A stretch of DNA of 64,000 nucleotides from a virus. Position 1 is the first letter of the stretch. Every line of letters starts with the position of its first letter. A model generated the notes under the pieces. It was given only the letters and a program-made list of their open reading frames with translations. It ran no database searches and was not told the DNA's origin. Below are positions 1,653 through 51,163 of the stretch, piece by piece. The stretch lies in the IMG/VR virus record IMGVR_UViG_3300010370_000027. The stretch is one strand, 5' to 3'. The translations under genes were made by a program, and so were the position numbers.

Positions 1653-2492
1653 TTATAATGTTAAAATGTCTCCCGGTATGCAGTCAAGAACCTTCTTGAA
1701 GGATTCACCATACTGGGACCTCAGAATAACTTTTGGATCTTCCCATTTTGCTATTCCTTCCTCTGAAGATCTTAGACTGCCCGAAAACTTTGTCACCCTA
1801 TAGAAATAAACGGTTTTGTTACCAGAAGTATCTTTGCAAAGAGGTATCAAGTTATGAGCAACTAAGCCCGTCTCTTCTTTGAGTTCTCTTACGGCTGCTT
1901 CGTCTGGTTTTTCGCCTGGTTCGATTCCGCCGCCCGGCATATTCATGTTCTGTTGATCTTTTCCCCGAGAAACAGCAAGTACTTTTCCTCCCTGCGTAAC
2001 AAGAACTATGGCGGCGCCAGGTGTTGCAAGCGCTTCCTCTTCTTCTACATCTTTCCGCAAAGATCCCCCGACTCTCTTTACAAGAAAGCCGGACCTGGTA
2101 TTTCCAGGAGCATCAAACCTTCGGAGGCCAGACATTTTGTAGTCTCCGGCTACTTCTTCCAGATTATTCTGTGAATTCTTTATGGATTCGAAGAATTTCT
2201 TCTTAAGAAGTCTTGACAATCCTTTTCTTGCAAGTTTTTTATCGTAATTAACTCTGCTTAAGACGGAAGGATAAATTTCACTTGAATATTCTGCTATCTT
2301 CTTCTTGATGTGGGGGTCAACTTTCCAGTCGTTCATGTCCTCCACATGAGAAATCCAAGCATCGACAAGAAATTCTATCTCCTCGGAATCATCGTTAAAA
2401 AATTTCTGAACAAAGCTTTTGAAGCCCGAACCCTTTTCCGGGTTCTTGAAGTAAAGAAACTCTTTAAGGTATTCTCTTAAGAGACTTTTCAT
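1653..2492 (-). CDS. NUDIX hydrolase with long N-terminal extension carrying the shared leader
   Basis: Nudix box GGGIEPGEKPDEAAVRELKEETGL; starts MKSLLREYLKEFL. Confidence 0.85.
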   Translation of the reverse strand: MKSLLREYLKEFLYFKNPEKGSGFKSFVQKFFNDDSEEIEFLVDAWISHVEDMNDWKVDPHIKKKIAEYSSEIYPSVLSRVNYDKKLARKGLSRLLKKKFFESIKNSQNNLEEVAGDYKMSGLRRFDAPGNTRSGFLVKRVGGSLRKDVEEEEALATPGAAIVLVTQGGKVLAVSRGKDQQNMNMPGGGIEPGEKPDEAAVRELKEETGLVAHNLIPLCKDTSGNKTVYFYRVTKFSGSLRSSEEGIAKWEDPKVILRSQYGESFKKVLDCIPGDILTL

Positions 2493-2968
2493 ATCGATTC
2501 ATTCTTCTTTGAATCTACGAGCTTTTTTGTCATACCAACGATGTCGATTATCTGACCCGCTGCTCTTCTTGCATCAATCTCGAAAGGATTGTCGTAGTAT
2601 GTGTGGCTTTCTGAACAACCCAATTTAATACCTATCTGAATCCCATAATAAAACAAAGGCCAGAATATACCGAGGCACATGGTCTGCGAAACATGCTGTT
2701 GTTCATGCCTTAGAGTAACTGCTTTTGAATCTGGTGGGTTCTTAAGCACCACGACTTGACCTGAAGCGTGTCCCGAAAGTTTCTTCCAATAGTTGGTGAG
2801 CCACTCTGGGATTTTGTCGTTGTTAACTGTCCAGACGAGCGCGTCGCCCTCTTTCCCGTACCATTTATACCATCCCATGCATGTGTACAAGCTTACGTAT
2901 ATGAGGCCAAAAGCAGTTACAGGTGATGCCCATGCATATCCTAAATACTTCTTTACGTTATCCCACAT
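2489..2968 (-). CDS. Membrane-associated zincin-like protein
   Basis: HExxH (LRHEQQH), NPFEIDA, hydrophobic segments. Confidence 0.55.
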   Translation of the reverse strand: MWDNVKKYLGYAWASPVTAFGLIYVSLYTCMGWYKWYGKEGDALVWTVNNDKIPEWLTNYWKKLSGHASGQVVVLKNPPDSKAVTLRHEQQHVSQTMCLGIFWPLFYYGIQIGIKLGCSESHTYYDNPFEIDARRAAGQIIDIVGMTKKLVDSKKNESI

Positions 2969-3045
2969 GAGTCACCTCCAAATTTGTCGTAAATATGAGG
3001 TGAAGTGAAAAAAACTAAGCTACGGAATCGCTGAAAAAGCTTCTT

Positions 3046-4326
3046 TTATTTTCCGCCGACGATCTTCGACACTGGCTTCGTCGACCACATTCTACAAGAC
3101 CAATAAGCTGCCTTCGTCCTGTCAGAAGCTCTGGATGTACCACATCCATGACGTGCCCTGAAGTTCTTACGAGCCTTTGGATTGTCGCGGCGAATCTCCA
3201 TTCCTTTGGCGCCGAAGTTGACCTTCTTGACGTTGCCCGTCTTCTTGTCCTTCACGTACACCTTGAACTTCGCTGTGTCGCCCTTCATAGGCTTGCCGAG
3301 GGGAACTTCACGTCCCTTGTACTCTGCCTCTAGCTGAAGACCTTCGCCAATTAGGTTAGAGTGAATGAGATCTGCGACTTGTGACTTCATGTCAGCCCTG
3401 GAAATGCCAAGCGCTTTGGACCACATCTTCCACTCAGGATTGAGGACAAAGAAGCTTTCGGCAGCGTCTGTCGCAGCGCCTTCGGGATCATCAAAATTCT
3501 CACCAGCGAAATCTGCCGCATACATCTCTATTGCTGTCTGATATTGATTCTGAACGTTTCCCTCTGGTTCTACGCCTTCATAGTCAGGTTCATCATCCAT
3601 GTATCTGCTTGGACGTTTGACGTGCTTGTAATCGGGATGCACGTATGAGGAGCCTGCCTTTTGTCCACGAGCTAGGAGGACTTCACCCGTGTCCTCGTCC
3701 ACGTACTCACCGCCAGCGACCTCTTCCGGATCCATCGCCGCGATCAAATCGAGGAGTTCCCGACGTGGAAGCATCACGTCATCTCCAAGACCTTCGCTGA
3801 GCGCTTCTTCATAGATCGCCTCTTCGATTGCATCGTAGTTCAGTTCGAATTGCTCGAGGAGACCTGCTGTCTTGAGAGCTGCTCCCTCTGCGACAATGAT
3901 CTTGAGAACTGACTCAGGGAAATCAACGCCTTCGCTCTGAAGGTCTTCCTCTAGCGAAAGTTCTTTGATTGCATCACGAAGCTCGTCGTCAGACCACTTG
4001 CTTTGGTCGAGGTGTGGTCGGGTTCCGTTCTTCTCCTTGTAGATGTCAGAGAATTGAGAGAGAAGTTGCTCCCTGTCCATCTTGTCGACATTTCTGAAAA
4101 ATTCTTCATGCTCACCGACATGCGACACAGCATCATCTATAGACCCTCGAGCAGAACTCTTGGCAAATTCCAGCTCTTGCTCTAGTTCCGCGTCGGTAAA
4201 GCTTTCGAGTTCTTCCGCTGTAGGGCCGATGAAACTTATACCAACATTATCGGCATAATCCTCGTTGTAGAGGAGGATGCTGTCGATAAGATCTTGCCGC
4301 TTGGATTCTGATAATACACTTCTCAT
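3046..4326 (-). CDS. Acidic multi-segment protein with a C-terminal basic domain (putative internal head protein)
   Basis: Very acidic body followed, after LQLE, by a basic domain (KFKVYVKD..KKVNFG..RKNFRARHGC..YWSCRMW) of a type common in T4-like phages and large DNA viruses; ATATTTA motif 5 nt upstream. Confidence 0.6.
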   Translation of the reverse strand: MRSVLSESKRQDLIDSILLYNEDYADNVGISFIGPTAEELESFTDAELEQELEFAKSSARGSIDDAVSHVGEHEEFFRNVDKMDREQLLSQFSDIYKEKNGTRPHLDQSKWSDDELRDAIKELSLEEDLQSEGVDFPESVLKIIVAEGAALKTAGLLEQFELNYDAIEEAIYEEALSEGLGDDVMLPRRELLDLIAAMDPEEVAGGEYVDEDTGEVLLARGQKAGSSYVHPDYKHVKRPSRYMDDEPDYEGVEPEGNVQNQYQTAIEMYAADFAGENFDDPEGAATDAAESFFVLNPEWKMWSKALGISRADMKSQVADLIHSNLIGEGLQLEAEYKGREVPLGKPMKGDTAKFKVYVKDKKTGNVKKVNFGAKGMEIRRDNPKARKNFRARHGCGTSRASDRTKAAYWSCRMWSTKPVSKIVGGK

Positions 4327-4331
4327 GTCAT

Positions 4332-4338
4332 TAAATAT
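4332..4338 (-). promoter_or_regulatory. Putative late promoter ATATTTA
   Basis: 5 nt upstream of ATG 4326; recurring motif. Confidence 0.6.
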
Positions 4339-4356
4339 TGTATCATCAAGAAGTTA

Positions 4357-4746
4357 TCAGTCTAAAGATCGAAGTGATTTCATCTGATTGTGCTTCCACT
4401 CGTCTCCGAGCTTGATCTTCTCTGGCGCCTGGTTGACGAGAGTTTCAAGCTCATCTAGTGCTCCCCTGACTATTGCACCAGCCATCTCCACATGGGCAGC
4501 TGTAAGGGTGTCGAAAGGCCTATTGTAGACGCCGGACATCAACTCATATGCTCCCGAACGATCACCTTTGAATTCTTCAAGAGTGACTCCAAGCGCATCG
4601 ACTCTGCTCATGAAATCAGCGAAGTCCTTGGGGCCCGAATAGATGTTGGGAGACCCAGGCTTGAAAGCGATGTTTCTACCCTGTGACATGGCGCGGGAAA
4701 CTTCTTCTTTGATGATGGTACGGAGTTGCTTGACTGTGATCTTCAT
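4357..4746 (-). CDS. Hypothetical protein with shared leader (MKITVKQLRTIIKEE)
   Basis: Start moved to ATG 4746, 5 nt after ATATTTA. Confidence 0.7.
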   Translation of the reverse strand: MKITVKQLRTIIKEEVSRAMSQGRNIAFKPGSPNIYSGPKDFADFMSRVDALGVTLEEFKGDRSGAYELMSGVYNRPFDTLTAAHVEMAGAIVRGALDELETLVNQAPEKIKLGDEWKHNQMKSLRSLD

Positions 4747-4751: not shown

Positions 4752-4758
4752 TAAATAT
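4752..4758 (-). promoter_or_regulatory. Putative late promoter ATATTTA
   Basis: 5 nt upstream of ATG 4746. Confidence 0.6.
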
Positions 4759-7738: not shown

Positions 7739-7768
7739 ATGATACACATAAAAGAGAAATTTGTTCAG
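7739..7768 (-). promoter_or_regulatory. Sigma70-like promoter, leaderless, for the GapR-like gene
   Basis: CTGAAC-N18-TATCAT-N6-ATG. Confidence 0.6.
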
Positions 7769-8844
7769 AGAGACTTGATTTTTTGGATGGTCTCTTTAAA
7801 GTCCTGAACGTATGGAGCTTCTTCCGGTATTCCCGCCTTGGCAACAGCGTCTATCTGACTCTGAAGATTTTTTATGTAAAACTCTTTCATTGTCTTTCTT
7901 GCTGCATCTATTAGCATCTTTTCAGCTTTTTCTTTTTCCTGCGGCGGGAGATTCTTGAGGTCTTCAGCCTCTGGTATCTTTTTACCCGTGAGCTTCTCTA
8001 GATCTTCTAAAGTCTTTGCTTCTTTTAGAACCGCAACAGCCTGCTTGTATATCTCAGAAAGAGATCTCCTGTACGATTCTGTTGCAACTTTTTGAATCTC
8101 TCCGAGACTTCGTGAATTAGAAAGTGACTTTCTTAAAAACTTTCTGTTCGAGAGTATCTTCTTGGTAACTTCTTCTTCAGAAATTTCTTTCAAAAGAGAT
8201 TCTCCGAATACATTGCCGTCTTTGTCTCGTTTCTTCTTTTTCTTAGAAGAATCGCTACCGCTATTGTCTAAGAGGTCTCCGAAGTTTTTATCCTTCACTT
8301 TGTTAAACAAATCGTCGGAAAACCCACCAGTAAAAACCGAGAGAATATCCTTGACTACTTCGGGAGATTTACTAAGCGCAAGTGCTGAAAGCGTAAGATC
8401 AGGCGCAGTTACGAAAGCAACAAACGCAGCGTCTGTAGAGCTAAGCGCCTTGTTAGTTCTTTCATAGACATCCTTGTACTGGTTTCTAATCTTCTGAATG
8501 TCAGACTTTTCTTTTTCAAATACCTTTGCGTACTTAGCTCCAAGACCAGGAATAAGTGTTGTTAAAATTACACCAAAACTAACAGTAAGTAATGTCCTGG
8601 CTTTTCTCGTAATTTCTTTTGACTTACCAACAGCTGTCTTAAACACGTCCGTAAAGGGAGTTATAAAAGTGTTTTTAAGGTCTTCTCTGCTTCCGAAAGC
8701 CATGCCATACGGTCCTGCTGCGGCAGAGATATCACCTGCTGTTATTCCCGCATCTGATAGAGTTGAAGCTCCAAAAGAGTCTTCTGTCAGCACTTCTTTT
8801 ACATACTCTTTCAGAAGGTGTGAGCTCGAACTATTTTTTGACAT
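7765..8844 (-). CDS. Hypothetical protein with shared leader (LLKEYVKEVLTE)
   Basis: Long ORF, start set at MSKNSSS. Confidence 0.7.
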   Translation of the reverse strand: MSKNSSSSHLLKEYVKEVLTEDSFGASTLSDAGITAGDISAAAGPYGMAFGSREDLKNTFITPFTDVFKTAVGKSKEITRKARTLLTVSFGVILTTLIPGLGAKYAKVFEKEKSDIQKIRNQYKDVYERTNKALSSTDAAFVAFVTAPDLTLSALALSKSPEVVKDILSVFTGGFSDDLFNKVKDKNFGDLLDNSGSDSSKKKKKRDKDGNVFGESLLKEISEEEVTKKILSNRKFLRKSLSNSRSLGEIQKVATESYRRSLSEIYKQAVAVLKEAKTLEDLEKLTGKKIPEAEDLKNLPPQEKEKAEKMLIDAARKTMKEFYIKNLQSQIDAVAKAGIPEEAPYVQDFKETIQKIKSL

Positions 8845-10024
8845 TCGAATCCTTCTTTCTGGGGGCTGCAATCTGCTTACCGCCGACGTGAGAAAGTACT
8901 TGAGCCTCAGCGTCGGCTGAGAGGCCAATTCTTCCGCCCTGCGTGAAGAACTTTACGCCTAGGTCGCTTTTTGGAGTGAATGTAAGAATTCCGTTATGAT
9001 ACCAAATTATACCTGCTGCTTCACCCATAGAGGCATTCACTGCTTGTTCACTTATCAATCGGTATAACTCAGCAACAGAAATTGAACCATAAGTTGATGG
9101 GTATGTATTGGAGAGAGCTCCTGCTATTTGAGGCAAAAGATTTGCGAAATCCTTCATGCCGAGTTCTGAAAATCTAGCGACATCTATGATTCCTGTTTTT
9201 GCAATCTGCTTCAATATAGGAGTATTGGTAATTAACTTTTCAGACGTAGACCCCATTTTACTTCCGACGCGAGGCTTTTCTTCTTTCACATGCCAGTTTT
9301 CTCCCATGACGTTCACGTCGTACGGACTGTTAGATCCGCCGAGCCTCGTTTCAGAGAACAACAGCGGCAAGACAAGCTCTCCCCTGCCAATCTGTGTTCC
9401 TGCAGAAACGGAAGTTCTTGTGTCTGCAAGCTCAAGAAGGGCATCAGGAACTGTAATTGTTCCTGTGGGCTTTCTTTCACTTTTATCTGAAAGAATCGCA
9501 GCTATCTCTGCGGGATAATTCTTAGAAAAGAACTTCTTCAGAAGAATTTGAATGGAAGCATTTTGAGGATAGCTTTCTTTCAGAAGATGCTCAATCTCAA
9601 TTGCAGTCTCGGGATAATCTGAGTAACCTTCGAGGTAGCTATCTGGTTCAAATTTCTTGACTCCGAGCTCTTTGCTAATGAAAGATCTCAGCAGCTCTAT
9701 CTTTTCATCCGGTATATCGTAATCTTCGTTGCCAATTTTTACTGCAGCCTCAGAAATATCCTCTGTTGCTTTTGCTTCCTTTTGGGCTTGACGTTTAGCA
9801 GATGCAAGCTCAGACTTTAATCTTGAGATTAAACGAGAATAGTTTGCACGAGCTTCAGAGCCTCTGCGCTGTTTGTCTCGCCAGCGTGCGAGATCAACAA
9901 TTCTCATCTCTAGATCACTTATATGCTCTTGTGAACCCCAAGGAGCTTTTCCATCGGTTGTGTCAGCCTCTCGAATTCTTGTCTCAACTAACAATTCTAT
10001 ATAATTTCTCAAATCTTCAGACAT
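8831..10024 (-). CDS. Leader-bearing protein with possible PD-(D/E)xK nuclease-like C-terminal domain
   Basis: MSEDLRNYIELLVE leader; GRGE...YDVNVMGENWHVKE. Confidence 0.5.
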   Translation of the reverse strand: MSEDLRNYIELLVETRIREADTTDGKAPWGSQEHISDLEMRIVDLARWRDKQRRGSEARANYSRLISRLKSELASAKRQAQKEAKATEDISEAAVKIGNEDYDIPDEKIELLRSFISKELGVKKFEPDSYLEGYSDYPETAIEIEHLLKESYPQNASIQILLKKFFSKNYPAEIAAILSDKSERKPTGTITVPDALLELADTRTSVSAGTQIGRGELVLPLLFSETRLGGSNSPYDVNVMGENWHVKEEKPRVGSKMGSTSEKLITNTPILKQIAKTGIIDVARFSELGMKDFANLLPQIAGALSNTYPSTYGSISVAELYRLISEQAVNASMGEAAGIIWYHNGILTFTPKSDLGVKFFTQGGRIGLSADAEAQVLSHVGGKQIAAPRKKDSNVKK

Positions 10025-11220: not shown

Positions 11221-11587
11221 GCGAAAGACTATACACTACGTCTTTGTATAGTTCATCTGCGTGCTTAGCATATTCTTTGTCAAGCTCTGTTATCTGGTTG
11301 AGATCGTGTGTCTGTAAAGTCAAGGTTACAGATTCGTACTGTATCGTCAAAGTAGCGTGATGACCAGTTTTTTCTTCATGAATTAAAAGCTGCCTTACGA
11401 AGTCGTTCCTTAATTCGTTAGAAATAAACTTAAAGGTCTTAATCAAAGAATTGTCTGATTTTTTCCATTTGTCAGTCGCTATAACAGGAACGTCTCTGCC
11501 TCGAGGCATCACGGGAAGACGCCCGAAGTCCATGGGACGACGGGCTCTGTCAAGAAACTCTTCGTGAAGCTGACGCAATTGTTTCAT
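11207..11587 (-). CDS. phhB: Pterin-4-alpha-carbinolamine dehydratase
   Basis: W....LIKTFKF...F....E..GHH...I.Y..V.L.LQTHD...ITELD. Confidence 0.85.
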   Translation of the reverse strand: MKQLRQLHEEFLDRARRPMDFGRLPVMPRGRDVPVIATDKWKKSDNSLIKTFKFISNELRNDFVRQLLIHEEKTGHHATLTIQYESVTLTLQTHDLNQITELDKEYAKHADELYKDVVYSLSHDSR

Positions 11588-12339
11588 AAGATGACACAGC
11601 CCCCAACAACTGCAGACTCTGTGAAGGAAGAACCGTGAGTCCAGACTTTTTTATTGCGGTCGACAACACACGAACCGCCTTTAAAATTAAGATCTCTCTC
11701 TTTTCCAACTCGATTGGACACGACTACGTTAGCAGCAGTTTCTTCAGCGAGCTCGACCCATGTTGAGTCCGGATAGCCGTAATCAGACCCCCAATTTGTA
11801 AGTAGTGCGATTGTGTCCACAGAGCCCTTCTTATAGAAGCGTTGTTCGTTCTTGTAGAACTTATATGTGTCTCTGTAATTGTTCATAACGTCACGGCAAA
11901 TAAGAACGCCTGTTCGTCCGGCTCTTGTGACAATAACTGGGTGTAACTGCTCTGAAGACTCAGCCCATAAGTTATCTGAGCCCCACAAATTATGCTTCTG
12001 ACAATTTCCTACAAGGCCTGTGGGACCAACGATTGCTGCTGAATTATAGAATTTACCTTCGCACGCCTCGACATACCCAAACACAATGTGCGTATTGAAA
12101 CGTCGTGCAATTGGAAGAAATGATTCCGTCTGATAGCCGTCTCTGTTCTGCGAGCAATCAGCAGCTTCACGCTTGTCGTTAAGAACATAACCACTGAGGC
12201 ACAACTCTGGGAGGACAACCAGAGATGCACCTTTTGCAGCTGCCTCAAATGCAAGCTGAGTCGCAATCTGTAAGTTTGCATAAACATCGTGCAATTCTGG
12301 CTTGAATTGCACAGCGGCTACGATCGGTGTTTGCATCAT
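11584..12339 (-). CDS. Carbon-nitrogen hydrolase (nitrilase superfamily)
   Basis: Glu-Lys-Cys triad: LPELCLSGY, QKHNL, LICRD; YNSA. Confidence 0.92.
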   Translation of the reverse strand: MMQTPIVAAVQFKPELHDVYANLQIATQLAFEAAAKGASLVVLPELCLSGYVLNDKREAADCSQNRDGYQTESFLPIARRFNTHIVFGYVEACEGKFYNSAAIVGPTGLVGNCQKHNLWGSDNLWAESSEQLHPVIVTRAGRTGVLICRDVMNNYRDTYKFYKNEQRFYKKGSVDTIALLTNWGSDYGYPDSTWVELAEETAANVVVSNRVGKERDLNFKGGSCVVDRNKKVWTHGSSFTESAVVGGCVIL

Positions 12340-13343
12340 TCCTCTTCAGCACATCTTGTGCAGATTCTTGGGAAGCCTTTGCCGCCGTTAGCCTCGTATT
12401 CCTTCTTGTCAGAAGATTTCATGTTCTTGCCGCAACTTGGGCACTTTGGACCAGCTTCTGTGGGCTTTGCGGGACCGGCAGCTTCTGAAACATCTGCCTT
12501 CATCTCTTTCTTAAGCTGCTTGTCAAGAAACTCTTTGAAACCATCGAGTTCAGACACAATATCGGGGTGATCGAGCATGAGCTGAACGTCAGCTGCAGTG
12601 AGTTCTCCCGAACCCTTTAGGAAATCGACATAGTCCTTCATCGCCATCAAGATTGTAATTTCGAGCTCCTCTGGTTCCATTGCTCCCAAGTACTTTGCCT
12701 TTGAAAGAGCTTTTTCAACAGCCTGCTTGGCACCCGACTCAGAAGCATATCCGAGATCCTGAGCTATCTGCTTGAAAGATGCACCGCCGATATCTGTCTG
12801 CATGACATTCTTGCGTTCGCGGCCAGCTGCGGGTGCGTCTGCCCTGACCATGGGGGCTGCATCCTCGTCGTCGCGCCACTTCGACATTGTTCCCTGTAGA
12901 TTTTTCTTACGCTTTTCAAGATTACGCATGTATTCACCGCCGTGAACACCCATTGGAATCTTCTTGACCGGTGGCAACTCTGCTTCTTTCAATATCTTTC
13001 TGATGGCAAGTCTGATAGTCTCTTCGACCTTCTTGTTGTCTTTCATTTCTTTGTCCTCTTCTGTGTCTTTAATAGCATCTTTCATCGCGTCAAAAACGTC
13101 TTCGACACAATTGTCAGAAATATCGTCAATCATGCCCGACAAGGCAACTTTAAGTTCTTTTCTATTCGCTGGTTTGAAATTTGGATTGCCCGGGTCTGTC
13201 GCGGCAGCAGAAGGATCAACTACAGCAGAAACAGAAGCAGGAGAATCTGAAAGATCGGTAGTAGACTGCCAACCGACGTTCGGATTCATCATCGTCTCTC
13301 TTATGAGTTCTCTAATTGCCTTTTCAGTCACGACGATTTTCAT
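12336..13343 (-). CDS. Leader-bearing protein with HTH-like segment and C-terminal Zn ribbon
   Basis: MKIVVTEKAIRELIRE; SFKQIAQDLGYASESGAKQAVEKAL; CPSC...CTRC. Confidence 0.6.
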   Translation of the reverse strand: MKIVVTEKAIRELIRETMMNPNVGWQSTTDLSDSPASVSAVVDPSAAATDPGNPNFKPANRKELKVALSGMIDDISDNCVEDVFDAMKDAIKDTEEDKEMKDNKKVEETIRLAIRKILKEAELPPVKKIPMGVHGGEYMRNLEKRKKNLQGTMSKWRDDEDAAPMVRADAPAAGRERKNVMQTDIGGASFKQIAQDLGYASESGAKQAVEKALSKAKYLGAMEPEELEITILMAMKDYVDFLKGSGELTAADVQLMLDHPDIVSELDGFKEFLDKQLKKEMKADVSEAAGPAKPTEAGPKCPSCGKNMKSSDKKEYEANGGKGFPRICTRCAEEE

Positions 13344-19117: not shown

Positions 19118-19125
19118 TGCTTTAA

Positions 19126-20127
19126 TTATGCTTCCTTCTTCCAGAAGCTATACATTTTCTTTTCGATCTCATAATTCATCATCTTGACAGTTCGATTTGG
19201 TTGCGATGTAGCCCATACGAACATCTTCTCTATGAGATCATTAAAGTCTGTCTCATCTTTGAACCCAAGATCTTTCTTGGCTTTGCTGTGATCGCAATAA
19301 GCAAGTTTTACTTCATCTCTGGCTTCAAGATGAACTAGGCTCGTATTATAGCCAAGCTTGTTTGCAACGCTGCAAAATCGATTGGCAGCTTCGAGAATTG
19401 TCATTTCTGTGTCTGCGCCTATGTTATAGGTTTGACAATCACCTACCATCATAAGCTTTTCAAAAGGCTCCATGTAATACTTGATATCAGAGAACGATCT
19501 AACCTGAGAACCATCTCCATAGACTGTAAGTGGCTGTCCAGACAATGTCTGTCTAATCCAAATGCCAAGTACATTCCGATATTTGTCCCAAATATTCTGA
19601 TATATCCCGAAGACGTTATGGGGTCTAACTATAGAATAGTTCAAGCCGAAAAATCGAGAAGCTTGTTGTAAATCCATCTCTATCGCATACTTTGCTATTC
19701 CGTATGGATCTTCTGGATTTGGTGTCATTTCCTCTGTGTAGGGCGGCTGGTATGCACTCCCATACACATCCATCGAAGAAGTAAAAATTACCTTCTTTAC
19801 ATCGTTATTGATGCAGCTATTGATTAAGTTGACAGAAGCAACAACGTTGTTCGTGTAGTTAAAATTTCTGATAAATGGACTTAAACCAACAGCAGCGTAA
19901 GCTGCAAAATGATAAGCATAATCGGGCTTTGTATCCTTGAAAACTCTGTCTATTTTCTCAGCATCAACAAGATTTCTTTCATAGAAATCAACTCTTGGAT
20001 CAATATTTTCTATATAACCGCCACTAAGATCGTCAACTCCTACAACTTCATGCCCTTTTTCAAGGAGATGACGTGTAAAATGCGATCCCAAGAGACCAGC
20101 ACACCCAGTTACAAGTATCTTTGACAT
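19126..20127 (-). CDS. Second NAD-dependent NDP-sugar epimerase/dehydratase
   Basis: TGCAGLLGSH, TSSMDVYG, YGIAK, RPHNVFG, GDGSQVRSF. Confidence 0.93.
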   Translation of the reverse strand: MSKILVTGCAGLLGSHFTRHLLEKGHEVVGVDDLSGGYIENIDPRVDFYERNLVDAEKIDRVFKDTKPDYAYHFAAYAAVGLSPFIRNFNYTNNVVASVNLINSCINNDVKKVIFTSSMDVYGSAYQPPYTEEMTPNPEDPYGIAKYAIEMDLQQASRFFGLNYSIVRPHNVFGIYQNIWDKYRNVLGIWIRQTLSGQPLTVYGDGSQVRSFSDIKYYMEPFEKLMMVGDCQTYNIGADTEMTILEAANRFCSVANKLGYNTSLVHLEARDEVKLAYCDHSKAKKDLGFKDETDFNDLIEKMFVWATSQPNRTVKMMNYEIEKKMYSFWKKEA

Positions 20128-31533: not shown

Positions 31534-31872
31534 ATGAAGAGAAGCATCGTTGAAATAATACAGGAAAGATTCGGTGATCCTATTGGAAGTTACGCTGGTG
31601 ATGCGCCAGCAGGTGTTCGAAGCATTGATGAGAGCATCTGTCCCGAATGCGGCATGAAAGACTGCGAATGCGAACACACAAACGAAGCTGAGGCTTGCAC
31701 GCAATGTGGCTACATGAAAATCGAAGGATCTTGTGGTTGCACTCACCTCGACGAAGCAAAGAAGAAAAAGAGAGGTCTCTGGGCGAACATTCATGCCAGA
31801 CGCAAGGCAGGTAAACGTCCTAAGCGACCAGGAGAGAAGGGCTATCCTGAAACGTTAGACGTAACCAAATAA
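31534..31872 (+). CDS. Small Cys-rich/basic protein with shared leader
   Basis: ATATTTA 5 nt upstream; MKRSIVEIIQE; CPECG, CTQCG; GLWANIHARRK..PGEKGYP; followed by a terminator. Confidence 0.75.
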   Translation: MKRSIVEIIQERFGDPIGSYAGDAPAGVRSIDESICPECGMKDCECEHTNEAEACTQCGYMKIEGSCGCTHLDEAKKKKRGLWANIHARRKAGKRPKRPGEKGYPETLDVTK

Positions 31873-31873
31873 G

Positions 31874-31899
31874 AAACGGCCTCTTTCGAGGCCGTTTTT
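31874..31899. terminator. Bidirectional intrinsic terminator between convergent genes
   Basis: aaacggcctc-tttc-gaggccgttttt. Confidence 0.85.
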
Positions 31900-31909: not shown

Positions 31910-32476
31910 TTACTTCTTTTTCTTTGATTTTGACTTCTTTACAACCGCCCAAGATTTGGACGGATTGGCTGAGTTGACTCTTGCCATTGCCCACTGGTGC
32001 TGTGACATTCCCTTGCGTGAACCTGAAGTAGCCCAAGCAGCAAGCCCCTTTTTGTACTCTGCCTCTACAGAACCAGGAGTGAGACCTCGTTTCTCAGCTT
32101 TCTTCCTAAGGGTTTCTTTGGTCTTAGCAGAAAGAGCCTCATTTAAAACTTCAGATATGAGATCTTGAAGAAGCGCTATACCTTCTTTTGCAGACTCAGA
32201 ATCATCGCGTGGCTTACTCTTGAAGCCGGGTTTCTCACGCTCTTTCTCTTCCATGTCAGCCCGTAGTTTATAAGCTCGCTTCCTGTCTTCGGGATCATCG
32301 CTCTTTGCAAGCTCTTTCGCTCTGTCGAGGTCACGATCACGCTTTGTCCCCTGTTTTGCACCGTATTGTCTTGGGTGGGGCTTGTCTGAAGCATCTTTCT
32401 TCTTAGCTTCTTCTAGGGCATCTTTGATAAGGTTGCGAAGATCTTCCTCTGTCAATGATAGCTCTTCGTTCGACAT
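31910..32476 (-). CDS. Basic putative internal head protein (DUF5824-like C-terminal domain)
   Basis: Leader LTEEDLRNLIKDALEE; LRKKAEK..YKKGLAAW..QWAMARVNS. Confidence 0.65.
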   Translation of the reverse strand: MSNEELSLTEEDLRNLIKDALEEAKKKDASDKPHPRQYGAKQGTKRDRDLDRAKELAKSDDPEDRKRAYKLRADMEEKEREKPGFKSKPRDDSESAKEGIALLQDLISEVLNEALSAKTKETLRKKAEKRGLTPGSVEAEYKKGLAAWATSGSRKGMSQHQWAMARVNSANPSKSWAVVKKSKSKKKK

Positions 32477-32477: not shown

Positions 32478-33092
32478 TCACTTCTCGCTTGGCCACTTTC
32501 CTGTGGCCTTGTGCATCATCCAAGCTGCTGCCGCCTCTGGTTCATCAGCCCACTTCTCAACCTTCTTAACCTTGTCTTTGAAGGTCTTTGTTCCCTTTAG
32601 TATCTTCTGTGCAGTCTTCTTGGAAGGTCCCTTAGATTTCGCTTCAGCGTGCACCTCGTGCTCGTGCTCGTCTTCCTCGCCGTATGCTTCGAGATTCGCA
32701 TCGCCAGTAAGATAACCGTGAACCTGCTGAAGATTCTCGTGAGCAACTGCTATGTGGCTTTGTACCCATCCGGGAAGCTGATCATCATAATCGAGAAGCT
32801 CGCAGATGTCATGCGCCATCTCCTTCATTGAAGAGAGCTGTGACTTTGCCATGTATCCTTCGTCATCTTGAGCAGCACCATGCTCAGAACCGTGTAGAAA
32901 TCGATCATCATCATCAAAATCAACAGCAGGTTCATGATCGTCCCCGGCGACGTAACCCCAGTTTCCGTTCTTCCAGGCTGCCATCTCATCTTCTGTGATG
33001 CGAGTCATTGCTTCTGTAAGATTCTTCTTTGGCTTTATCTTAGAAATCTCCTCTGAGATAATCTTTCTAAGCATCGATGCTGTAAGCTTCAT
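32478..33092 (-). CDS. Putative internal head protein with shared leader
   Basis: MKLTASMLRKIISEE; EGYMAKSQL..LPGWVQSHI. Confidence 0.65.
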   Translation of the reverse strand: MKLTASMLRKIISEEISKIKPKKNLTEAMTRITEDEMAAWKNGNWGYVAGDDHEPAVDFDDDDRFLHGSEHGAAQDDEGYMAKSQLSSMKEMAHDICELLDYDDQLPGWVQSHIAVAHENLQQVHGYLTGDANLEAYGEEDEHEHEVHAEAKSKGPSKKTAQKILKGTKTFKDKVKKVEKWADEPEAAAAWMMHKATGKWPSEK

Positions 33093-33640
33093 TGTGGCAT
33101 AATCCTTTGTTTGAGGAGATAGATGTGTCCTTCATGCTTGTCCTCGATTCCAGCGAGAAGGTTGTCGAGTCCACGGGACATAGTGCCGTTCGCCTTGAGA
33201 TGCTCCGCTAGATGAGCAGCAGCCTTAAGGAAGTTCATCTCAGCGAGGTAGGAACGCTTAGCAAGTTCGGTGGGCTGTGGAATCGTGGCAGTCATTCCAT
33301 ATCCCTGAAGTAGCTGGCATAGCTGCTTGTGCTGAAGGACGACGTCCACGTTCGAAGTGCAACCGAGACCGATGGCTTTTTCTGCAAGAGAGTCAATGTC
33401 TGCTGCAGTAGCCTCATAGATTCGAGAGAAGAGGAGATGATCTCCGTAGAAAGGATCGCCCTTCGTGATCCAGTGATGATTCTGGTGGACTGCAGCGAGG
33501 AACTTGAGGTGGACGAGGAGGACAGAGAGCTCTGGGTACGGAACTCCTCCCCACTCTGAAACCATGTTCTCTGTGATGATGTCGAGGTTGGGTTCCACGA
33601 CAAGAGCCATCTCAAGGGTTTCTACGAGTCTTTTCTTCAT
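33089..33640 (-). CDS. dps: Dps/ferritin-like protein
   Basis: HQNHHW..KG..FYGDHLLF..IY....D.LAEK; HEGHIYLL. Confidence 0.8.
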   Translation of the reverse strand: MKKRLVETLEMALVVEPNLDIITENMVSEWGGVPYPELSVLLVHLKFLAAVHQNHHWITKGDPFYGDHLLFSRIYEATAADIDSLAEKAIGLGCTSNVDVVLQHKQLCQLLQGYGMTATIPQPTELAKRSYLAEMNFLKAAAHLAEHLKANGTMSRGLDNLLAGIEDKHEGHIYLLKQRIMPQ

Positions 33641-34794: not shown

Positions 34795-34844
34795 ATTGAA
34801 AAGACTCCTAGCTCCTAAGTATTAAGCGTCCATAAAATCATACG

Positions 34845-35043: not shown

Positions 35044-35574
35044 CTAACTATCTAACGAAAAGAAAGAAGTCCAGTCAGGATGCCAAGTTCCTGTCGGGCT
35101 AACGTCCCAGAAGTGATTCATTAGAGGAATAGTAGGAGCCTTTCTAAGATGCATTCCAGACTCAGCAAGAAGCCTAGAGCCTTTCTTTAGATTGCACCTC
35201 TTGCAAGCAGAGACACAGTTTTTCCAGTCAGTTCCACCGCCTTTGGAGCGAGGCAATACGTGGTCAATTGTGATCGTCTTGTAATCAAGATTTATTCCGC
35301 AATATTGGCACTGCCAGTTATCACGATTAAATAGAACTCTTTTTCTAAACCTTGGTGTAGAGTATTTTCGTGTTACGCGGTCCAAAAGTCTAACAGTTGC
35401 AGGAACCCTATAGGCTTTGCCTGGTGATGTGTATATTTCGTCCCAAGAGCTTGACTGCTCTCCCATTATTATGACTTCTGCTCTTCCCTTGAAGAGGAGA
35501 TTAAGGGCCCGGATTGAGGACACAAAATTTAGCGGAGTCCAGTCGGCGTTAAGAAGTAATACATTTCTTTTCAT
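35044..35574 (-). CDS. HNH endonuclease (McrA-like)
   Basis: VLLLNAD, RD..CQYCG, TIDHVLPRSKGG..W.NCV.AC..CN..K. Confidence 0.92.
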   Translation of the reverse strand: MKRNVLLLNADWTPLNFVSSIRALNLLFKGRAEVIIMGEQSSSWDEIYTSPGKAYRVPATVRLLDRVTRKYSTPRFRKRVLFNRDNWQCQYCGINLDYKTITIDHVLPRSKGGGTDWKNCVSACKRCNLKKGSRLLAESGMHLRKAPTIPLMNHFWDVSPTGTWHPDWTSFFSLDS

Positions 35575-36527: not shown

Positions 36528-36542
36528 GATGTAATTATTATG

Positions 36543-37811: not shown

Positions 37812-38717
37812 CTACTTTACTTCGATAACGTCCAAGTCATCGAGAGCAATTAAAATGTCCATGATCTCTGTAGACATCTCTTCGTCGTTTTCTGCGCCTA
37901 GAGCCTTTTGAAGATCGTCTAAGAAATCACCGAATTGTTTCTTTGCTGCTTCCTTCTTCTTGTCATCAGCTTCGACGATAAGACCAGCAATCTTGCCCCA
38001 CTTCTCTACTGAAATTGACTCTGTGATCGTTCTGGACTTTTTTGCCGCGTTCAAGATAACAGTCTCGCTAATTCGACGACCTCCTTCGGCAAGTAGGTGA
38101 TTGTTCTTGATGAGCCAATTGATCACCTTTTCAGCAACCTCTGGATTTGTCTTGGTTTGCTGAGAAATCGCCTTTGCGAGTGCCTTAGAGGCCTTGGGTG
38201 AATCGATTTTCTTCTCTTGGGCTTGTGCAGCGACCTTCTCTGGGTCTTGTCCGGATGCAGCCGCTGCTGCTCTCACTATTGTCGAGATCGAAGAATCCCC
38301 AGCTGTGATGGGACTTCCCGACTTTGGAGCAGCAGTCTCAGCAGGTGCTGATCCTGATCCGCCTGTGCTGGGGGATTCTGCTGCTTTTTCTATCTTTGTA
38401 GGCTCAGCACCCGCGCCTGTAAGTATTGAATTAAGTAATTCAAGGGCTACTTCGGGAGAGACACCTGCATCCTTTGCAATAGACTTAAGATCTTGAATCT
38501 CTTTCGTGATGTTGTCTGCAGCAACCTTCACTCTTCTATTAAATTTGTTATTGGCGAAGATTTTACCTATGTCGGTAGCGCCTGTGTCCTTCACGGCTCC
38601 AAGCCAAGACTTGAGATTGTCAAACCAACCCTCAAGAATAACTTCTCGTTGGGCATCAGACAAGTTTGCTTCCAAAAGAGTCTGATATATCTTGTAGCGC
38701 AAAGCAGAATTTTCCAT
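37812..38717 (-). CDS. Leader-bearing hypothetical protein
   Basis: MENSALRYKIYQTLLE; ATAATTA upstream. Confidence 0.7.
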   Translation of the reverse strand: MENSALRYKIYQTLLEANLSDAQREVILEGWFDNLKSWLGAVKDTGATDIGKIFANNKFNRRVKVAADNITKEIQDLKSIAKDAGVSPEVALELLNSILTGAGAEPTKIEKAAESPSTGGSGSAPAETAAPKSGSPITAGDSSISTIVRAAAAASGQDPEKVAAQAQEKKIDSPKASKALAKAISQQTKTNPEVAEKVINWLIKNNHLLAEGGRRISETVILNAAKKSRTITESISVEKWGKIAGLIVEADDKKKEAAKKQFGDFLDDLQKALGAENDEEMSTEIMDILIALDDLDVIEVK

Positions 38718-40804: not shown

Positions 40805-40834
40805 ATATTACTACACACTACGTACGAATTTCAA
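40805..40834 (-). promoter_or_regulatory. Sigma70-like promoter, leaderless, for thyX-tmk
   Basis: TTGAAA-N18-TAATAT-N6-ATG. Confidence 0.68.
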
Positions 40835-41098
40835 CAACTTTTCCTCAAGAAGTTCCTTCATTTCACCCTCGAGTTCACGGAGAACGGCGTTTGCAGAAGC
40901 AAGCATTGCACGCTGCTTTGCAGGATTGTTAGCCATTTGGCTAATGTGTCTCCTGAGATGACGCTTGAGACCTTCAGTTGCGTCTGCAGCAACTTGAGAG
41001 AGTGCGAAATCAGGAATGCCTCGGGCGTAATCCTCCTTGAGGAGAGACTTCACTTCCGAGGCAATTACCTGTTTGAGAGCTTGTTGCTTCTTCATCAT
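40811..41098 (-). CDS. Hypothetical protein with shared leader
   Basis: LKQVIASEVKSLLKE. Confidence 0.65.
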   Translation of the reverse strand: MMKKQQALKQVIASEVKSLLKEDYARGIPDFALSQVAADATEGLKRHLRRHISQMANNPAKQRAMLASANAVLRELEGEMKELLEEKLLKFVRSV

Positions 41099-41529
41099 TC
41101 CTCAGGGACAGAGGCGACTTGAACAGCTGCCTCCATCATGCGCTTTGCATAGGCCTGAATGGCGTTTGAGATATCAGTCGCGAGCTCCATCTGAGCCTCA
41201 TAGATGTCGTGCATCTCGAGCTCATCTTCCCAGGCGCTTGGAGTCATGTTAACTACACCTGAAAGTCTCATGTAAGAAGCAAGGCTCCTATACAAGACTC
41301 TGTTGATCTGAGGAATGAAGTCACGTGAATAATTCGTGACATCATCTTCAATATCTTTGACAAACTTTTCGGGAGCTCCCTCAAGGCCGCTCTCCTCAAA
41401 CATGAGAGCTTCAGACATCAAAGACTTCTTCCTGTTCTCGTACATGCTCTCGTGCAAGTTCTTTCTGACTTCTGCTTCCTCGCTGATAAGGCCGTTGATC
41501 TTGTCAAGTTGTCTCTGGGTAAGTTTCAT
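41095..41529 (-). CDS. Hypothetical protein with shared leader
   Basis: MKLTQRQLDKINGLISEE; ATAGTTA upstream. Confidence 0.65.
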   Translation of the reverse strand: MKLTQRQLDKINGLISEEAEVRKNLHESMYENRKKSLMSEALMFEESGLEGAPEKFVKDIEDDVTNYSRDFIPQINRVLYRSLASYMRLSGVVNMTPSAWEDELEMHDIYEAQMELATDISNAIQAYAKRMMEAAVQVASVPEE

Positions 41530-41551
41530 TTTCGACTCCGAACTTAACTAT

Positions 41552-47926: not shown

Positions 47927-47933
47927 TAACTAT
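47927..47933 (-). promoter_or_regulatory. Putative late promoter ATAGTTA for the actin-like gene
   Basis: 5 nt upstream of ATG 47921. Confidence 0.55.
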
Positions 47934-48241: not shown

Positions 48242-48666
48242 TATCGTCCCGTGCTTCCAAATCCGCCTTCTCCTCTTTCTGTAGGAGAGAAATGTTCTAC
48301 ATGCCGCATCTCTGCCTGAGCAAAAGGTAAAAAGACTAGTTGAGCAATTCTGTCACCCTTCTTTACTGTATAACGTAAAGAATTATGATTTATAAGAAGA
48401 ACTTTGATTTCTCCTCTATAGTCAGAATCAATTATGCCAGGGGAGTTGAGTACTGTCACTCCGTGCTTAAAAGCCAGACCTGATCGAGGGCAAACTTGGG
48501 CAACGTATCCATTTGGAATTTCTAGATGGAGGCCTGTGCTTACTGCGCTCCACTTTCCTGGTGGGATTGTAATTTCTTCACTTGCAATTAAGTCACACCC
48601 AGCAGACCCAGGGGTTGCGTACTGAGGTGGAGCTTGGTTCTTGTATCCTACTACGACATCACTCAT
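48241..48666 (-). CDS. dut: Trimeric dUTPase
   Basis: AGCDL, PRSGLA, GIIDSDYRGE, RIAQLV, RGEGGFGSTG. Confidence 0.97.
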   Translation of the reverse strand: MSDVVVGYKNQAPPQYATPGSAGCDLIASEEITIPPGKWSAVSTGLHLEIPNGYVAQVCPRSGLAFKHGVTVLNSPGIIDSDYRGEIKVLLINHNSLRYTVKKGDRIAQLVFLPFAQAEMRHVEHFSPTERGEGGFGSTGR

Positions 48667-49840
48667 CTGAAGTTATCTCCTCTTCAATGATCTGCTCAAT
48701 CTCACTTGGATTTATTGTCAAAGCAGCTTCAATCACAGCATTGACGTACTTCCTGTACTTCTCATCTCTCATTACGTCTCCGAAGTCTGCCTTGTAGAAC
48801 TTCTTGGTAATGAGAACTTCACCAGTCTTTTCAGAAGATACGACAAGTTCCTTCCAGGCTCCGTCTCCGGTAATGATTATCTTGTTGTCTTCGAAGACAA
48901 CACCGCCGTTCTCCTTGCAGTAAGTTCGAACTTCGTCGAAGATGTACTCGTGCTCCACGATGCCCTTACCGAAGATGATGTCGAACTCGCACTTCTTGAA
49001 AGGAGGAGCGACCTTGTTCTTCTTGATCGTGCAAATGACGTGAATACCGATGATGTTTCCGTCCTTGTCCTTCACAGGGTTGCCGCTGGATAGCGAGATT
49101 CTGACAGAAGCATGGAACGGAATGGCCTTACCGCCAGGTGTAGTGGTTGGATCACCATACATGACACCGATCTTGTCGCGGATCTGATTGATGCAAAGCA
49201 ACGTCACGTTGTTCTGACCGATCACGCCTGTAATCTTTCGCATACCCTTAGAGATGACACGAGCTTGCAGACCAATCGTGTTGTCCTCATACTCACCGTC
49301 GAGTTCAGCCTTGGGTGAAGTCGCTGCAACGGAGTCCCAGATGACAACGATTGGTACGTTCTTCTCGATTATTTGCTTTGCCTTGGTAATGGTCGATTCA
49401 ATAATCGAGAATACTTCTTCGGTCATGTGGGAGTCGCAGTAGACAAACCGCTTCTTAACGTCGATTCCCATGTCAGCGAGCTTCTGAACGGGCGTGGCAT
49501 TCTCAGTATCCACATAGACGACAAGGCCGCCCATCTTCTGGGCAACTGCAGCAGCATGATAGGCCAGGTGAGACTTTCCACTTGATGGTGGACCGCTAAT
49601 CTCAATGATTCGTCCCTCAGGATATCCGCCATCGACGGCATTTCTAATGGCGTAGTTCAGTTGAATGGAGCCTGTATCGATCCATCGCTTGACAATGGTT
49701 GGTGCATCCATTTCCGAGAGATTGTAAGCAACCCTCGTTCCGAACTCCTTGTTGATGGACGTGATGAGATCCTTCATCATGTCATCTACGTCGCTCTTCT
49801 TTGAAGAGGTTGTTTCTAATTCCTTGTCTTTCTTAGCCAT
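48659..49840 (-). CDS. recA: RecA/UvsX recombinase
   Basis: GRIIEISGPPSSGKS, DTENA, DSVAA, INQIR, GGKA..FHAS.R, KNKVAPPF. Confidence 0.95.
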   Translation of the reverse strand: MAKKDKELETTSSKKSDVDDMMKDLITSINKEFGTRVAYNLSEMDAPTIVKRWIDTGSIQLNYAIRNAVDGGYPEGRIIEISGPPSSGKSHLAYHAAAVAQKMGGLVVYVDTENATPVQKLADMGIDVKKRFVYCDSHMTEEVFSIIESTITKAKQIIEKNVPIVVIWDSVAATSPKAELDGEYEDNTIGLQARVISKGMRKITGVIGQNNVTLLCINQIRDKIGVMYGDPTTTPGGKAIPFHASVRISLSSGNPVKDKDGNIIGIHVICTIKKNKVAPPFKKCEFDIIFGKGIVEHEYIFDEVRTYCKENGGVVFEDNKIIITGDGAWKELVVSSEKTGEVLITKKFYKADFGDVMRDEKYRKYVNAVIEAALTINPSEIEQIIEEEITSDE

Positions 49841-49854
49841 TAATTTGTCTCCGT

Positions 49855-49890
49855 AAGAAGAAAGGGCACACACGACTGTGTGTGCCCTTC
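49855..49890 (-). terminator. Hairpin with U-rich tail between ssb and recA
   Basis: Minus strand aagggcacacac-agtc-gtgtgtgccctt-tcttctt. Confidence 0.7.
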
Positions 49891-49897
49891 ATAGTAA

Positions 49898-50731
49898 TCA
49901 CTCTTCACCGATTAGATCTGCGAATGCATCATCAAGAGACTGCTTCTTAGCTTCTGTCTTCTCCACCTTCTTTACAGGTTTCTTGTCGGATTGCTTCACT
50001 TCCGCGACGAGACTTTCAAGTTCATCAACAGGCTCGGAGCCGCGAGAGGATCCGCCGTCGGCCGAAGAATCTGCAGATCCTCCGCTCAGCCAATTGTTGA
50101 GGATGGTCTCAATTTCTTGGGTAGACTTGAGCCTGTACATGTCGTCGATGCTCGGAATGTTATCAAGCCACTTCTGGGATACAGACTGGTCAGAGTGGAG
50201 AGAAGTAGACTTGCGTGCAGGATCTACGGTAGTGTCATTAAACTGCTTGCCAGGCTGCTTCGAAATAGTGACCTTGAGATCGAAACCTTCGGTCGGAGAG
50301 AGGATATCACCAACCTCCTCGTCGAGGAAGAAGCCAAGCATGCGCTGGTAGACGAGCTTACCAAAGCTCCAGATTTGGACCCCCTTGTCTTCCTCGCCTC
50401 TAACAATAACGGGAGCATAGCATCGCATCTTCGGTGCTAACTTCTTGGCAAGAACCCTGTCCTCTGGCTTTCCACTGCTGTAAAGCTTGCGGATGAGATC
50501 GTCGATGGGATCGGGCTTGCCAAATTGCTTTGGTGTCAAAATTCCTGCATTTTCACCGATGTAGTAGAACCAGCGTTCTGCGAATGGCTGACCGTCCGGT
50601 GAGTTCTTCCAAGGGAGGCACCTTACCTTGTATTCGCCTACAGTCGGCTTCCACATCTGAACCGAAGATGTCTTCTTGACACCGCTGAGTTCTGCGACAC
50701 GACGCTTAATTGCCTCTAGATCAATAGCCAT
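49898..50731 (-). CDS. gp32-like single-stranded DNA-binding protein
   Basis: VRCLP, PF.ERWFYY, DPI, VRGEEDKGVQIWSFGK, acidic C-terminal LDDAFADL; next to recA. Confidence 0.82.
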   Translation of the reverse strand: MAIDLEAIKRRVAELSGVKKTSSVQMWKPTVGEYKVRCLPWKNSPDGQPFAERWFYYIGENAGILTPKQFGKPDPIDDLIRKLYSSGKPEDRVLAKKLAPKMRCYAPVIVRGEEDKGVQIWSFGKLVYQRMLGFFLDEEVGDILSPTEGFDLKVTISKQPGKQFNDTTVDPARKSTSLHSDQSVSQKWLDNIPSIDDMYRLKSTQEIETILNNWLSGGSADSSADGGSSRGSEPVDELESLVAEVKQSDKKPVKKVEKTEAKKQSLDDAFADLIGEE

Positions 50732-50819
50732 TTTTACCTACTTTCCTTTTCCGTTTCCTATTGTTATTTGTAGACGGTATACCGCACCGCGCGGGAGTAC
50801 CGTCGTTGTTTGAGTCCTT

Positions 50820-50849
50820 AACTTAACACATGGAGTCAAGACTGTTCAA
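50820..50849 (-). promoter_or_regulatory. Sigma70-like promoter for ssb
   Basis: TTGAAC-N18-TAAGTT. Confidence 0.55.
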
Positions 50850-50869
50850 TTGTTGTGTCCCGACAGAGA

Positions 50870-51163
50870 TCACTTCCAACGCACGTAATTCTTTTTCGTT
50901 TTCTTGAGCTTCTGACCAGGCCTGGTGGGATTTGAGCCCACGTCAGCTGAAGAAGCACCTAACGGCGCTGTATAACCTGCAATGTTGGCGACAACACTCA
51001 TTTCGTCCATCTCTTCCGTCTCCTCTTCCGAATCCTTGTTCGCATCGTCTTTTTTGTCTTTTTGCTTCTTTGGTGATCCTTTAGATACCAACTGATTGGG
51101 TACACGATAATCGACAACCTCGGAGAGGACTGCCTCTATGTACTGTCTCAGTAAAGCGCTCAT
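50870..51163 (-). CDS. Small protein with shared leader
   Basis: MSALLRQYIEAVLSE; MDEMSVVANIAGY; ATACTTA 5 nt upstream. Confidence 0.7.
   Translation of the reverse strand: MSALLRQYIEAVLSEVVDYRVPNQLVSKGSPKKQKDKKDDANKDSEEETEEMDEMSVVANIAGYTAPLGASSADVGSNPTRPGQKLKKTKKNYVRWK

Follow-up and report, generated by a model that had tools for sequence, protein, structure and literature searches.

In bacteriophage T4, a capsid-targeting sequence (CTS) at the N-terminus lets a small number of proteins with anti-restriction or host-modifying roles accompany the DNA, and it has also been used to package foreign proteins. The N-terminus of the internal proteins IPII and IPIII reads MKTYQEFIAE/A (here and below a slash marks the end of an N-terminal segment). 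The first 10 residues of the CTS suffice for packaging and are removed by gp21 (PMC9026906, PMC9958956, PMC3012670), a protease that cuts after (L/I)-x-E and whose action is blocked by Asp at the CTS site (PMC9026906). Here we analyse a 64,000-nucleotide stretch of DNA from an uncultured, T4-like aquatic phage, IMG/VR record IMGVR_UViG_3300010370_000027 (the whole stretch is called the window), in which a 14-15-residue N-terminal amphipathic helix with the consensus M-K-(I/L)-T-x-x-Q-L-R-x-I-I-(K/R)-E-E, the leader, opens otherwise unrelated proteins. On sequence evidence, the leader is probably a prohead-targeting propeptide, the functional counterpart of the T4 sequence MKTYQEFIAE.

Every long open reading frame (ORF) of the window lies on the minus strand, and the gene order runs from tail genes at the high end to a replication and nucleotide-metabolism block of RecA, DnaB-type helicase, 5'-3' exonuclease, RNR, ThyX, Tmk, TK, dUTPase, and DnaE. 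IMG/VR holds 57 related loci with DnaE identities of 53-92%, on contigs of up to 240 kb. A 200-kb relative, G1 (76% DnaE identity), is collinear with the window and, together with the complete 239.6-kb relative G3, served as a proxy for the rest of the genome; head genes were read in relatives, and for the window's own genome they are inferred from synteny. The closest cultured capsid proteins belong to Flavobacterium phage immuto (45%), Microcystis phage Mel-JY01, Rhodothermus phage RM378, and cyanomyoviruses (about 31%), identities that place the lineage as distant T4-like.

A shared N-terminal leader on unrelated proteins

The strict motif [LIVM][RK]x[LIV][ILV]x[ED]E occurs three times in the six-frame translation of the window, solely in the ORFs starting at 4746, 33092, and 35039, and each time at residue 8 of an ORF opening MK(I/L); all three open with MK(I/L)xxxxLRxIIxEE. 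A degenerate DNA pattern of the leader also gave three matches, against 0.00 expected from 100 shuffles. Scored in fixed register with a position-specific scoring matrix (PSSM) trained only on leaders from relatives, the trio reached 29-31 bits and the ORF at 41529 reached 10.9, the best internal segment scoring 13.7. These four are the canonical carriers (ORFs are named by their start coordinates):

4357..4746, minus strand: 129-aa ORF with canonical leader MKITVKQLRTIIKEE; 29.5 bits by PSSM; exact pattern match
32478..33092, minus strand: 204-aa ORF with canonical leader MKLTASMLRKIISEE, a linker, NLTE/AMTRIT, and a helical-hairpin core; 31.1 bits
34845..35039, minus strand: 64-aa ORF with canonical leader MKIKLSDLRKIIREE; 30.7 bits; exact pattern match; ATAGTTA 5 nt ahead of the ATG
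41095..41529, minus strand: 144-aa ORF whose leader MKLTQRQLDKINGLISEE has a 3-residue insertion; 10.9 bits in fixed register; ATAGTTA 22 nt upstream

With the register left free, the core QLRKIIKEE scores at least 6 bits in 11 of the 79 window N-termini, against 1.65% of internal 26-aa segments (Fisher p=2.6e-6); in G1 it reaches at least 10 bits in 13 of 238 N-termini against 4 of 2,117 internal segments. The reversed PSSM showed no enrichment (0/79 window N-termini and 1/238 in G1), so composition or amphipathicity alone does not explain the likeness. Leader codons differ synonymously between the carriers of the window, which places the conservation at the protein level and rules out an origin of the likeness in a DNA-level or RNA element. 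Paralogy of the bodies was likewise ruled out: they have no mutual similarity in the window by all-vs-all BLASTP, and a wider set of 265 carriers (see below) falls into 215 clusters. Neither Pfam nor PHROGs holds a model for the leader, and a hydrophobic core of at least 10 residues, as in a Sec/Tat signal or membrane anchor, is not present; K, R, E, and Q alternate with I and L. Two observations of a preliminary description of this DNA are borne out: for the core set, strict motif, PSSM, and BLASTP agree that one peptide opens otherwise unrelated proteins, and the replication and metabolism enzymes listed above, from RecA to DnaE, all lack it.

Carriers and non-carriers in the window

The same description counted about 20 carriers; motif scores and orthologue comparison uphold its core set and leave a total of 8-11. 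A second sequence type, LLRxYIxxxLxE (type 2), can stand in for type 1 within one orthologous family. Four ORFs beyond the canonical set, those at 41098, 15695, 8844, and 13343, are supported as carriers by orthologues with a canonical leader, and those at 51163, 10024, and 32476 plausibly bear variant leaders:

40811..41098, minus strand: 95-aa ORF, diverged leader ALKQVIASEVKSLLKE; orthologues canonical, opening with MKLTKTQLKQLIKEE or MKLKAKDLRRIIKEE in G1, L119, and L158
15174..15695, minus strand: 173-aa ORF, leader-like MSSLKELARLLREAEE; core 12.2 bits, above every internal control; the G1 orthologue opens with MKKQITKSQLKTLIKE
7765..8844, minus strand: 359-aa ORF, type-2 helix HLLKEYVKEVLTE behind a 9-residue extension; in its G1 orthologue the canonical core IRQIIKEE takes that position
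12336..13343, minus strand: 335-aa ORF, variant leader MKIVVTEKAIRELIRE; core 6.5 bits; orthologues read MKIITTEKAIRELIRE in L002 and STLRQIVKVLLED in G1
50870..51163, minus strand: 97-aa ORF of a conserved ~95-aa family, type-2 helix MSALLRQYIEAVLSE; N-terminal regex match; ATACTTA 5 nt ahead of the ATG
8831..10024, minus strand: 397-aa ORF, type-2-like helix MSEDLRNYIELLVE; weakly supported, its G1 orthologue reading MKNSTLVEFVKLLVE
31910..32476, minus strand: 188-aa ORF with a DUF5824 C-terminus (PF19141), N-terminal helix LTEEDLRNLIKDALEE; core 10.0 bits; orthologues carry (D/E)LxLLExFIxEALxDEA

The body of the 129-aa canonical carrier at 4746 has no Pfam or PHROG match, and in the ESM Atlas it retrieved viral hypotheticals only, with scores below 0.9. 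At least 13 IMG/VR orthologues of the ORF at 51163 keep the type-2 helix, which could simply be the own N-terminus of this ~95-aa family. Type 2 was rejected as a second general tag, an IMG/VR scan returning mostly this one family and two or three others. In relatives, a type-2-like helix (NESLLRNYVKAILKS, LLRSYIKYLL) also forms the very C-terminal end of some proteins, one of them ligase-like with 377 aa and others of 531-638 aa encoded beside DnaE:

L020:7659-8792, plus strand: C-terminal type-2-like helix
L016:13861-15456, minus strand: C-terminal type-2-like helix
L045:16385-18301, minus strand: C-terminal type-2-like helix

Six or seven of the proposed carriers were set aside. The NUDIX hydrolase at 2492 has its N-terminal EYLKEFLYF in common with the G3 orthologue, as a conserved stretch of the protein itself and with no E-terminated leader, and the G1 orthologue lacks a leader; the N-terminus of the ORF at 11587 is part of a conserved domain; and those at 38717, 19117, 34794, and 16688 found no support. 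The start at 31534, also proposed, is not on the minus strand and belongs to a real plus-strand gene, which converges with the minus-strand operon on one shared hairpin terminator (about 31870-31895) and whose body module also occurs fused behind a leader in the 204-aa family.

1653..2492, minus strand: NUDIX hydrolase (PF00293), not a leader carrier
31534..31872, plus strand: 112-aa gene (MKRSIVEIIQE...) with Cys-rich CxxC clusters and a basic tail GLWANIHARRKAGKRP

The gene at 33089-33640 has leader-type genes on both sides, with translational coupling to them; it lacks a canonical leader itself and matched nothing in Pfam at E<=0.001.

Spread of the leader

A scan of IMG/VR with the leader DNA pattern found at least 120 stretches with at least 164 ORFs; the matches listed have a median length of 106 aa, and nearly all read MKITKRQLRRIIKEE or similar. 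Whole large records hold 7-19 leader genes each, while the reversed pattern gave 0. Some records have 11-13 consecutive, tightly coupled small genes with the leader on every one, and the arrays of record G048 are translationally coupled and have no promoters of their own. Altogether 265 distinct carriers fall into 215 unrelated body clusters, the bodies being between 60 and about 380 aa long. Searched with a profile built on the N-termini of 121 leader proteins, 1.84 billion proteins yielded 6,516 cluster representatives (50% identity) at E<=0.001; in the best 150 of these matches the leader stands at residue 1 in 122, and 76 have 2-4 leader-body units per ORF. In multi-unit ORFs (P0242-P0266), the internal leaders begin with Met and have E-(G/N/S)-K ahead of them, where the DNA resembles a Shine-Dalgarno site; such ORFs could be fused tandem genes or polyproteins meant for cutting at I-x-E. 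Canonical leader genes also occur on L087, a 75.5-kb contig with a CheckV completeness of 3%, which was judged a tiny part of a very large genome.

In the search for cultured relatives, only immuto showed a short form of the leader, MKKSQLRQIIKEA, and also a 73-aa ORF between portal and protease. At L086:10730-12030 in immuto, two neighbouring genes upstream of the terminase share a different N-terminus (MADNFNLRSFLTENKLT and MENFDLKKFLVENKLT), and structural genes there carry the T4-like late promoter CTATTTATAAATA. In full-text searches of the literature, no paper was found with the leader strings or describing the tag, the CTS literature found being limited to T4 and phiKZ-like phages; blastn of one leader array gave no match.

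The tandem arrays, with very similar leader DNA inside one genome, suggest duplication, and MK starts are common; the leader might thus have no common function and reflect descent from one small ancestral gene with a conserved N-terminus, or a translation-initiation or recombination constraint on the 5' end. We consider this very improbable. The synonymous differences among the window leaders point to constraint on the peptide, the helix persists within orthologous families even where its sequence switches between type 1 and type 2, and one body module is found both with and without the leader. Body lengths from 60 to about 380 aa in 215 clusters also speak against it, and neutral descent would not keep 15 residues over 6,516 clusters at 50% identity.

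The 204-aa family

The family of the 204-aa ORF at 33092 shows how leader and body are joined. The leader is present in 107 of 120 homologues, and the conserved body always begins after (L/I)xE, whether the leader abuts it, as in short forms (IKE/AITRIT), or a linker lies between, as in long forms (NLSE/AMTRIT). An AlphaFold 2 (AF2) model of the 204-aa protein has the leader as a detached amphipathic helix (residues 5-19), followed by a low-confidence linker and a confident core (77-140). An internal repeat, LxE-A-x-x-R-I-T-x-E-E-x-x-A-W-x-x-G-x-W-G-(Y/F)-V, recurs in the family with an LxE site ahead of each copy, and its members may be cut into several pieces.

Head genes and the prohead protease

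Peptidase_S77 (PF03420), the gp21-type protease, is present in all five large relatives. The G1 protease is 31% identical to T4 gp21 and keeps the His and Ser catalytic motifs; G1 also has a T4-type portal (phrog_213) and capsid protein (phrog_138) and, in the scaffold position, a 635-aa acidic helical protein with 23 (L/I)xE sites. The leader or a close variant stands on the 113-, 154-, 81-, and 72-aa ORFs of this head module, around the protease, scaffold, and capsid genes:

G1 head module, in order: TerL, 113-aa ORF, portal, 289-aa ORF, protease, 135-aa, 154-aa, 81-aa, and 162-aa ORFs, 635-aa protein, capsid protein, HNH endonuclease, 72-aa ORF

Among 45 contigs found by the leader DNA pattern alone, most of them 10-60% complete, 26 contain PF03420, including both (2/2) of those that are at least 90% complete, and about 8 of the 26 have a leader ORF no more than 1 kb away from the gene for the protease. 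No internal leader-like segments stand out in scaffold or portal. The protease of the lineage is extremely conserved and abundant, with 7,995 database clusters at E<=1e-20, the best 120 of which are 88-100% identical to the G1 protease. In G048, two adjacent capsid paralogues (L210:16270-18168 and L210:18262-20001) have identical N-termini, MSKKFTLNQLTEGIRQRNVG; they are probably a gp23/gp24-type pair of major and vertex proteins derived from recent duplication or conversion.

Candidate cleavage sites in leaders and bodies

Of 124 leaders on which the search pattern put no constraint at position 14, 92 have Glu there and 4 have Asp. In 54% of carriers another (L/I)xE follows, its end falling at positions 18-22, as against about 1% per position in bodies. 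T4 gp23 is cut after E65, with the loss of 65 residues (PMC9958956). The column of gp23-E65 is invariant, in an (L/V)xE context, in the capsid proteins of the lineage (LKE, LRE, LRE, VSE), which suggests that the specificity of the protease is conserved.

The bodies of carriers, from residue 31 onward (n=167), contain (L/I)xE at an observed/expected value of 1.00 relative to the shuffled expectation, as compared with 1.30 in size-matched non-carriers from the same loci and strand (n=642), and (L/I)xD, (L/I)xK, and (L/I)xQ are not depleted in the carrier bodies. Expressed as a ratio, the avoidance is 0.79 (confidence interval, CI, 0.66-0.93) versus 1.14 (CI 1.07-1.22), with a permutation p<=2e-4. 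Such avoidance is what would be expected of proteins that survive an (L/I)xE-specific protease and argues that the carriers would be retained cargo rather than degradable scaffold.

The same figures bear on a different account, by which the helix does target the prohead and the carriers are assembly or core proteins that, like T4 gp22, gp67, and gp68, are degraded and expelled at maturation. In many genomes, conserved leader ORFs of 81 and about 150 aa lie between the protease and scaffold genes, the place of gp67 and gp68 in T4, and the 81-aa protein is small and acidic like gp67. The carrier bodies are nevertheless poor in (L/I)xE (1.00 against 1.30), where the scaffold-like protein has 23 sites in 635 aa, and 215 unrelated body clusters with arrays of up to 13 genes are unlike conserved assembly parts. 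As a general account it is quite unlikely; it may hold for the two head-module members only.

Genomic setting and the ATANTTA motif

In the window, ATANTTA is a real motif, biased in strand and close to starts, with 20 sense and 7 antisense matches, about 15 of them 7-29 nt from a start; the sense matches include the following:

4752..4758, minus strand: ATATTTA, 5 nt ahead of the ATG of the 129-aa ORF
35045-35051, minus strand: ATANTTA site
41545-41551, minus strand: ATANTTA site
51169-51175, minus strand: ATANTTA site
34816-34822, minus strand: ATANTTA site

The carriers had been described as lying mostly behind this motif; the association falls short of significance both in the window (3/7 against 13/72, p=0.14) and in the 200-kb relative (p=0.11), which leaves ATANTTA unsupported as a leader-linked late promoter. 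In the window it also precedes an actin-like gene and a nucleotidyltransferase operon, and in G1 it stands ahead of tail sheath, adaptor, and scaffold-like genes and also of a primase. Seven copies (4752-4758, 35045-35051, 47927-47933, 51169-51175, 36532-36538, 19123-19129, and 4332-4338) end 4-5 nt ahead of an ATG that has no Shine-Dalgarno site; should the motif be a -10-like promoter element, the mRNAs would be leaderless or nearly so.

The setting of the carriers also bears on whether the head is their destination at all. The helix might instead be a docking peptide for a partner outside the head (candidates being the nucleoid, the phage's actin-like filament, a membrane surface, and a chaperone of the phage or a protein of the host), and so mark host-takeover or regulatory proteins. 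The carriers of the window lie among replication and metabolism genes, and in other genomes long, tightly coupled arrays far from head genes resemble the hyperplastic regions in which small accessory genes gather; docking by short N-terminal peptides is, moreover, known elsewhere among phages. Docking would leave unexplained the preference for Glu over Asp at position 14, the start of bodies after (L/I)xE together with the avoidance of (L/I)xE within them, and the leader copies adjoining the protease gene; the peptide is also too charged for a Sec/Tat signal or membrane anchor. We regard docking as unlikely.

A proposed route into the head

If the leader is a prohead-targeting propeptide, its helix would bind the scaffolding core during prohead assembly, so that any protein bearing it would be enclosed. 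The gp21-family protease would then cut after the Glu of I-x-E, and often once more, either at another (L/I)xE that follows after one or two turns of the helix or where a linker ends, freeing the mature body inside the head. Small, diverse bodies poor in (L/I)xE would thereby survive, and would probably be ejected with the DNA. A wider claim is put forward tentatively, as a possibility with less than even prospects: that in T4-like phages abundant in aquatic habitats a single address helix, hitherto undescribed, marks out a very large set of proteins for packaging and injection. This set would comprise effector families in the thousands, unrelated to one another, with as many as about 19 in a genome, and would include polyprotein-like ORFs of 2-4 tag-body units that the prohead protease would cut apart in the head.

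Several points weigh against a role in prohead targeting. The protease was not detected in 19 of the 45 leader contigs, which are fragments, and the carriers of the window have replication and nucleotide-metabolism genes around them. Glu and a heptad spacing are natural preferences of helices, which weakens the evidence from the Glu at position 14 and from the second site, and we infer the (L/I)xE specificity of this distant protease from sequence. The N-terminus of the capsid protein was considered as a copy of the leader and rejected, the match being weak and its Glu not conserved. ATANTTA precedes RNR in the window and primase in G1, and its link to carriers is not significant. One contig with canonical leader genes, L105 (IMGVR GVMAG-S-1030632-100_000001), is labelled as a giant-virus bin; the leader genes of L105 and L087 reflect either mis-binned phage DNA or a wider host range of the tag. 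The lineage has no close cultured relative, and a tblastn search of 50,697 phage records with two of the leader proteins returned nothing useful. The idea of a T4-like address tag, raised in the preliminary description, comes through the indirect sequence tests, with roughly half the carriers then claimed and a promoter link that the statistics do not support.

Were the proposal true, protein injection would not be a peculiarity of the T-even phages, and an uncultured phage group of great abundance would have it as a major strategy. A 15-residue motif would pick out injected proteins from sequence in at least 6,516 clusters, as first-line candidates for counter-defence, and on the wider claim the tag would serve both as a metagenome marker for injected anti-defence and takeover proteins and as a portable packaging handle. 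The co-evolution of tag, scaffold, and protease would become open to study across a deep lineage. Flavobacterium phage immuto is a cultured carrier in which the idea is directly testable.

Comparison with known systems

The leader resembles the T4 CTS of IPI, IPII, IPIII, and Alt in being a short N-terminal amphipathic peptide with an MK start and an I-x-E end (PMC9026906, PMC3012670, PMC9958956), and in standing on unrelated, fast-evolving small proteins. Relatives of the window also share with T4 a gp21-family protease, a gp20-type portal, a gp23-type capsid protein, and an (L/I)xE-rich scaffold. The two peptides, MKTYQEFIAE (10 aa) and MK(I/L)TxxQLRxIIKEE (14-15 aa), nevertheless have no recognisable homology, and since only the MK start and the I-x-E end are common to them, the leader is an analogue or a very distant variant of the CTS and not the same peptide. 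Unlike the CTS, it is often followed by a second site and occurs in multi-unit ORFs; its scale is also far larger: a genome has 7-19 carriers, arrays run to 13 genes or more, and the clusters number at least 6,516. The replication module, unlike that of T4, is DnaE-based, and the tag system here is known from sequence alone.

Close to gene 21, T4 encodes the small prohead core proteins gp67 and gp68 and the vertex protein gp24, whose N-terminal helices end in (L/I)xE (MAKINELLRE in gp24, MEGLIE in gp67); unlike the carriers described here, they are conserved assembly components that are degraded or trimmed, and not variable cargo. In the giant phages phiKZ, 201phi2-1, and SPN3US (protease gp175 or gp245), a diverged gp21 homologue processes many of the proteins inside the head, cutting C-terminal to Glu, and the propeptides of these head and ejection proteins have redundant sites, as here (PMC9026906, PMC5694885). 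These propeptides, in a different lineage, have in common only the cleavage motif S/A/G-x-E, with no 15-residue address helix. The cargo-loading peptides of encapsulins are alike only in working principle: a variety of cargo is brought into an HK97-fold shell by one short peptide at a terminus, but this peptide is usually C-terminal and is not removed by a protease, and neither portal nor DNA is involved.

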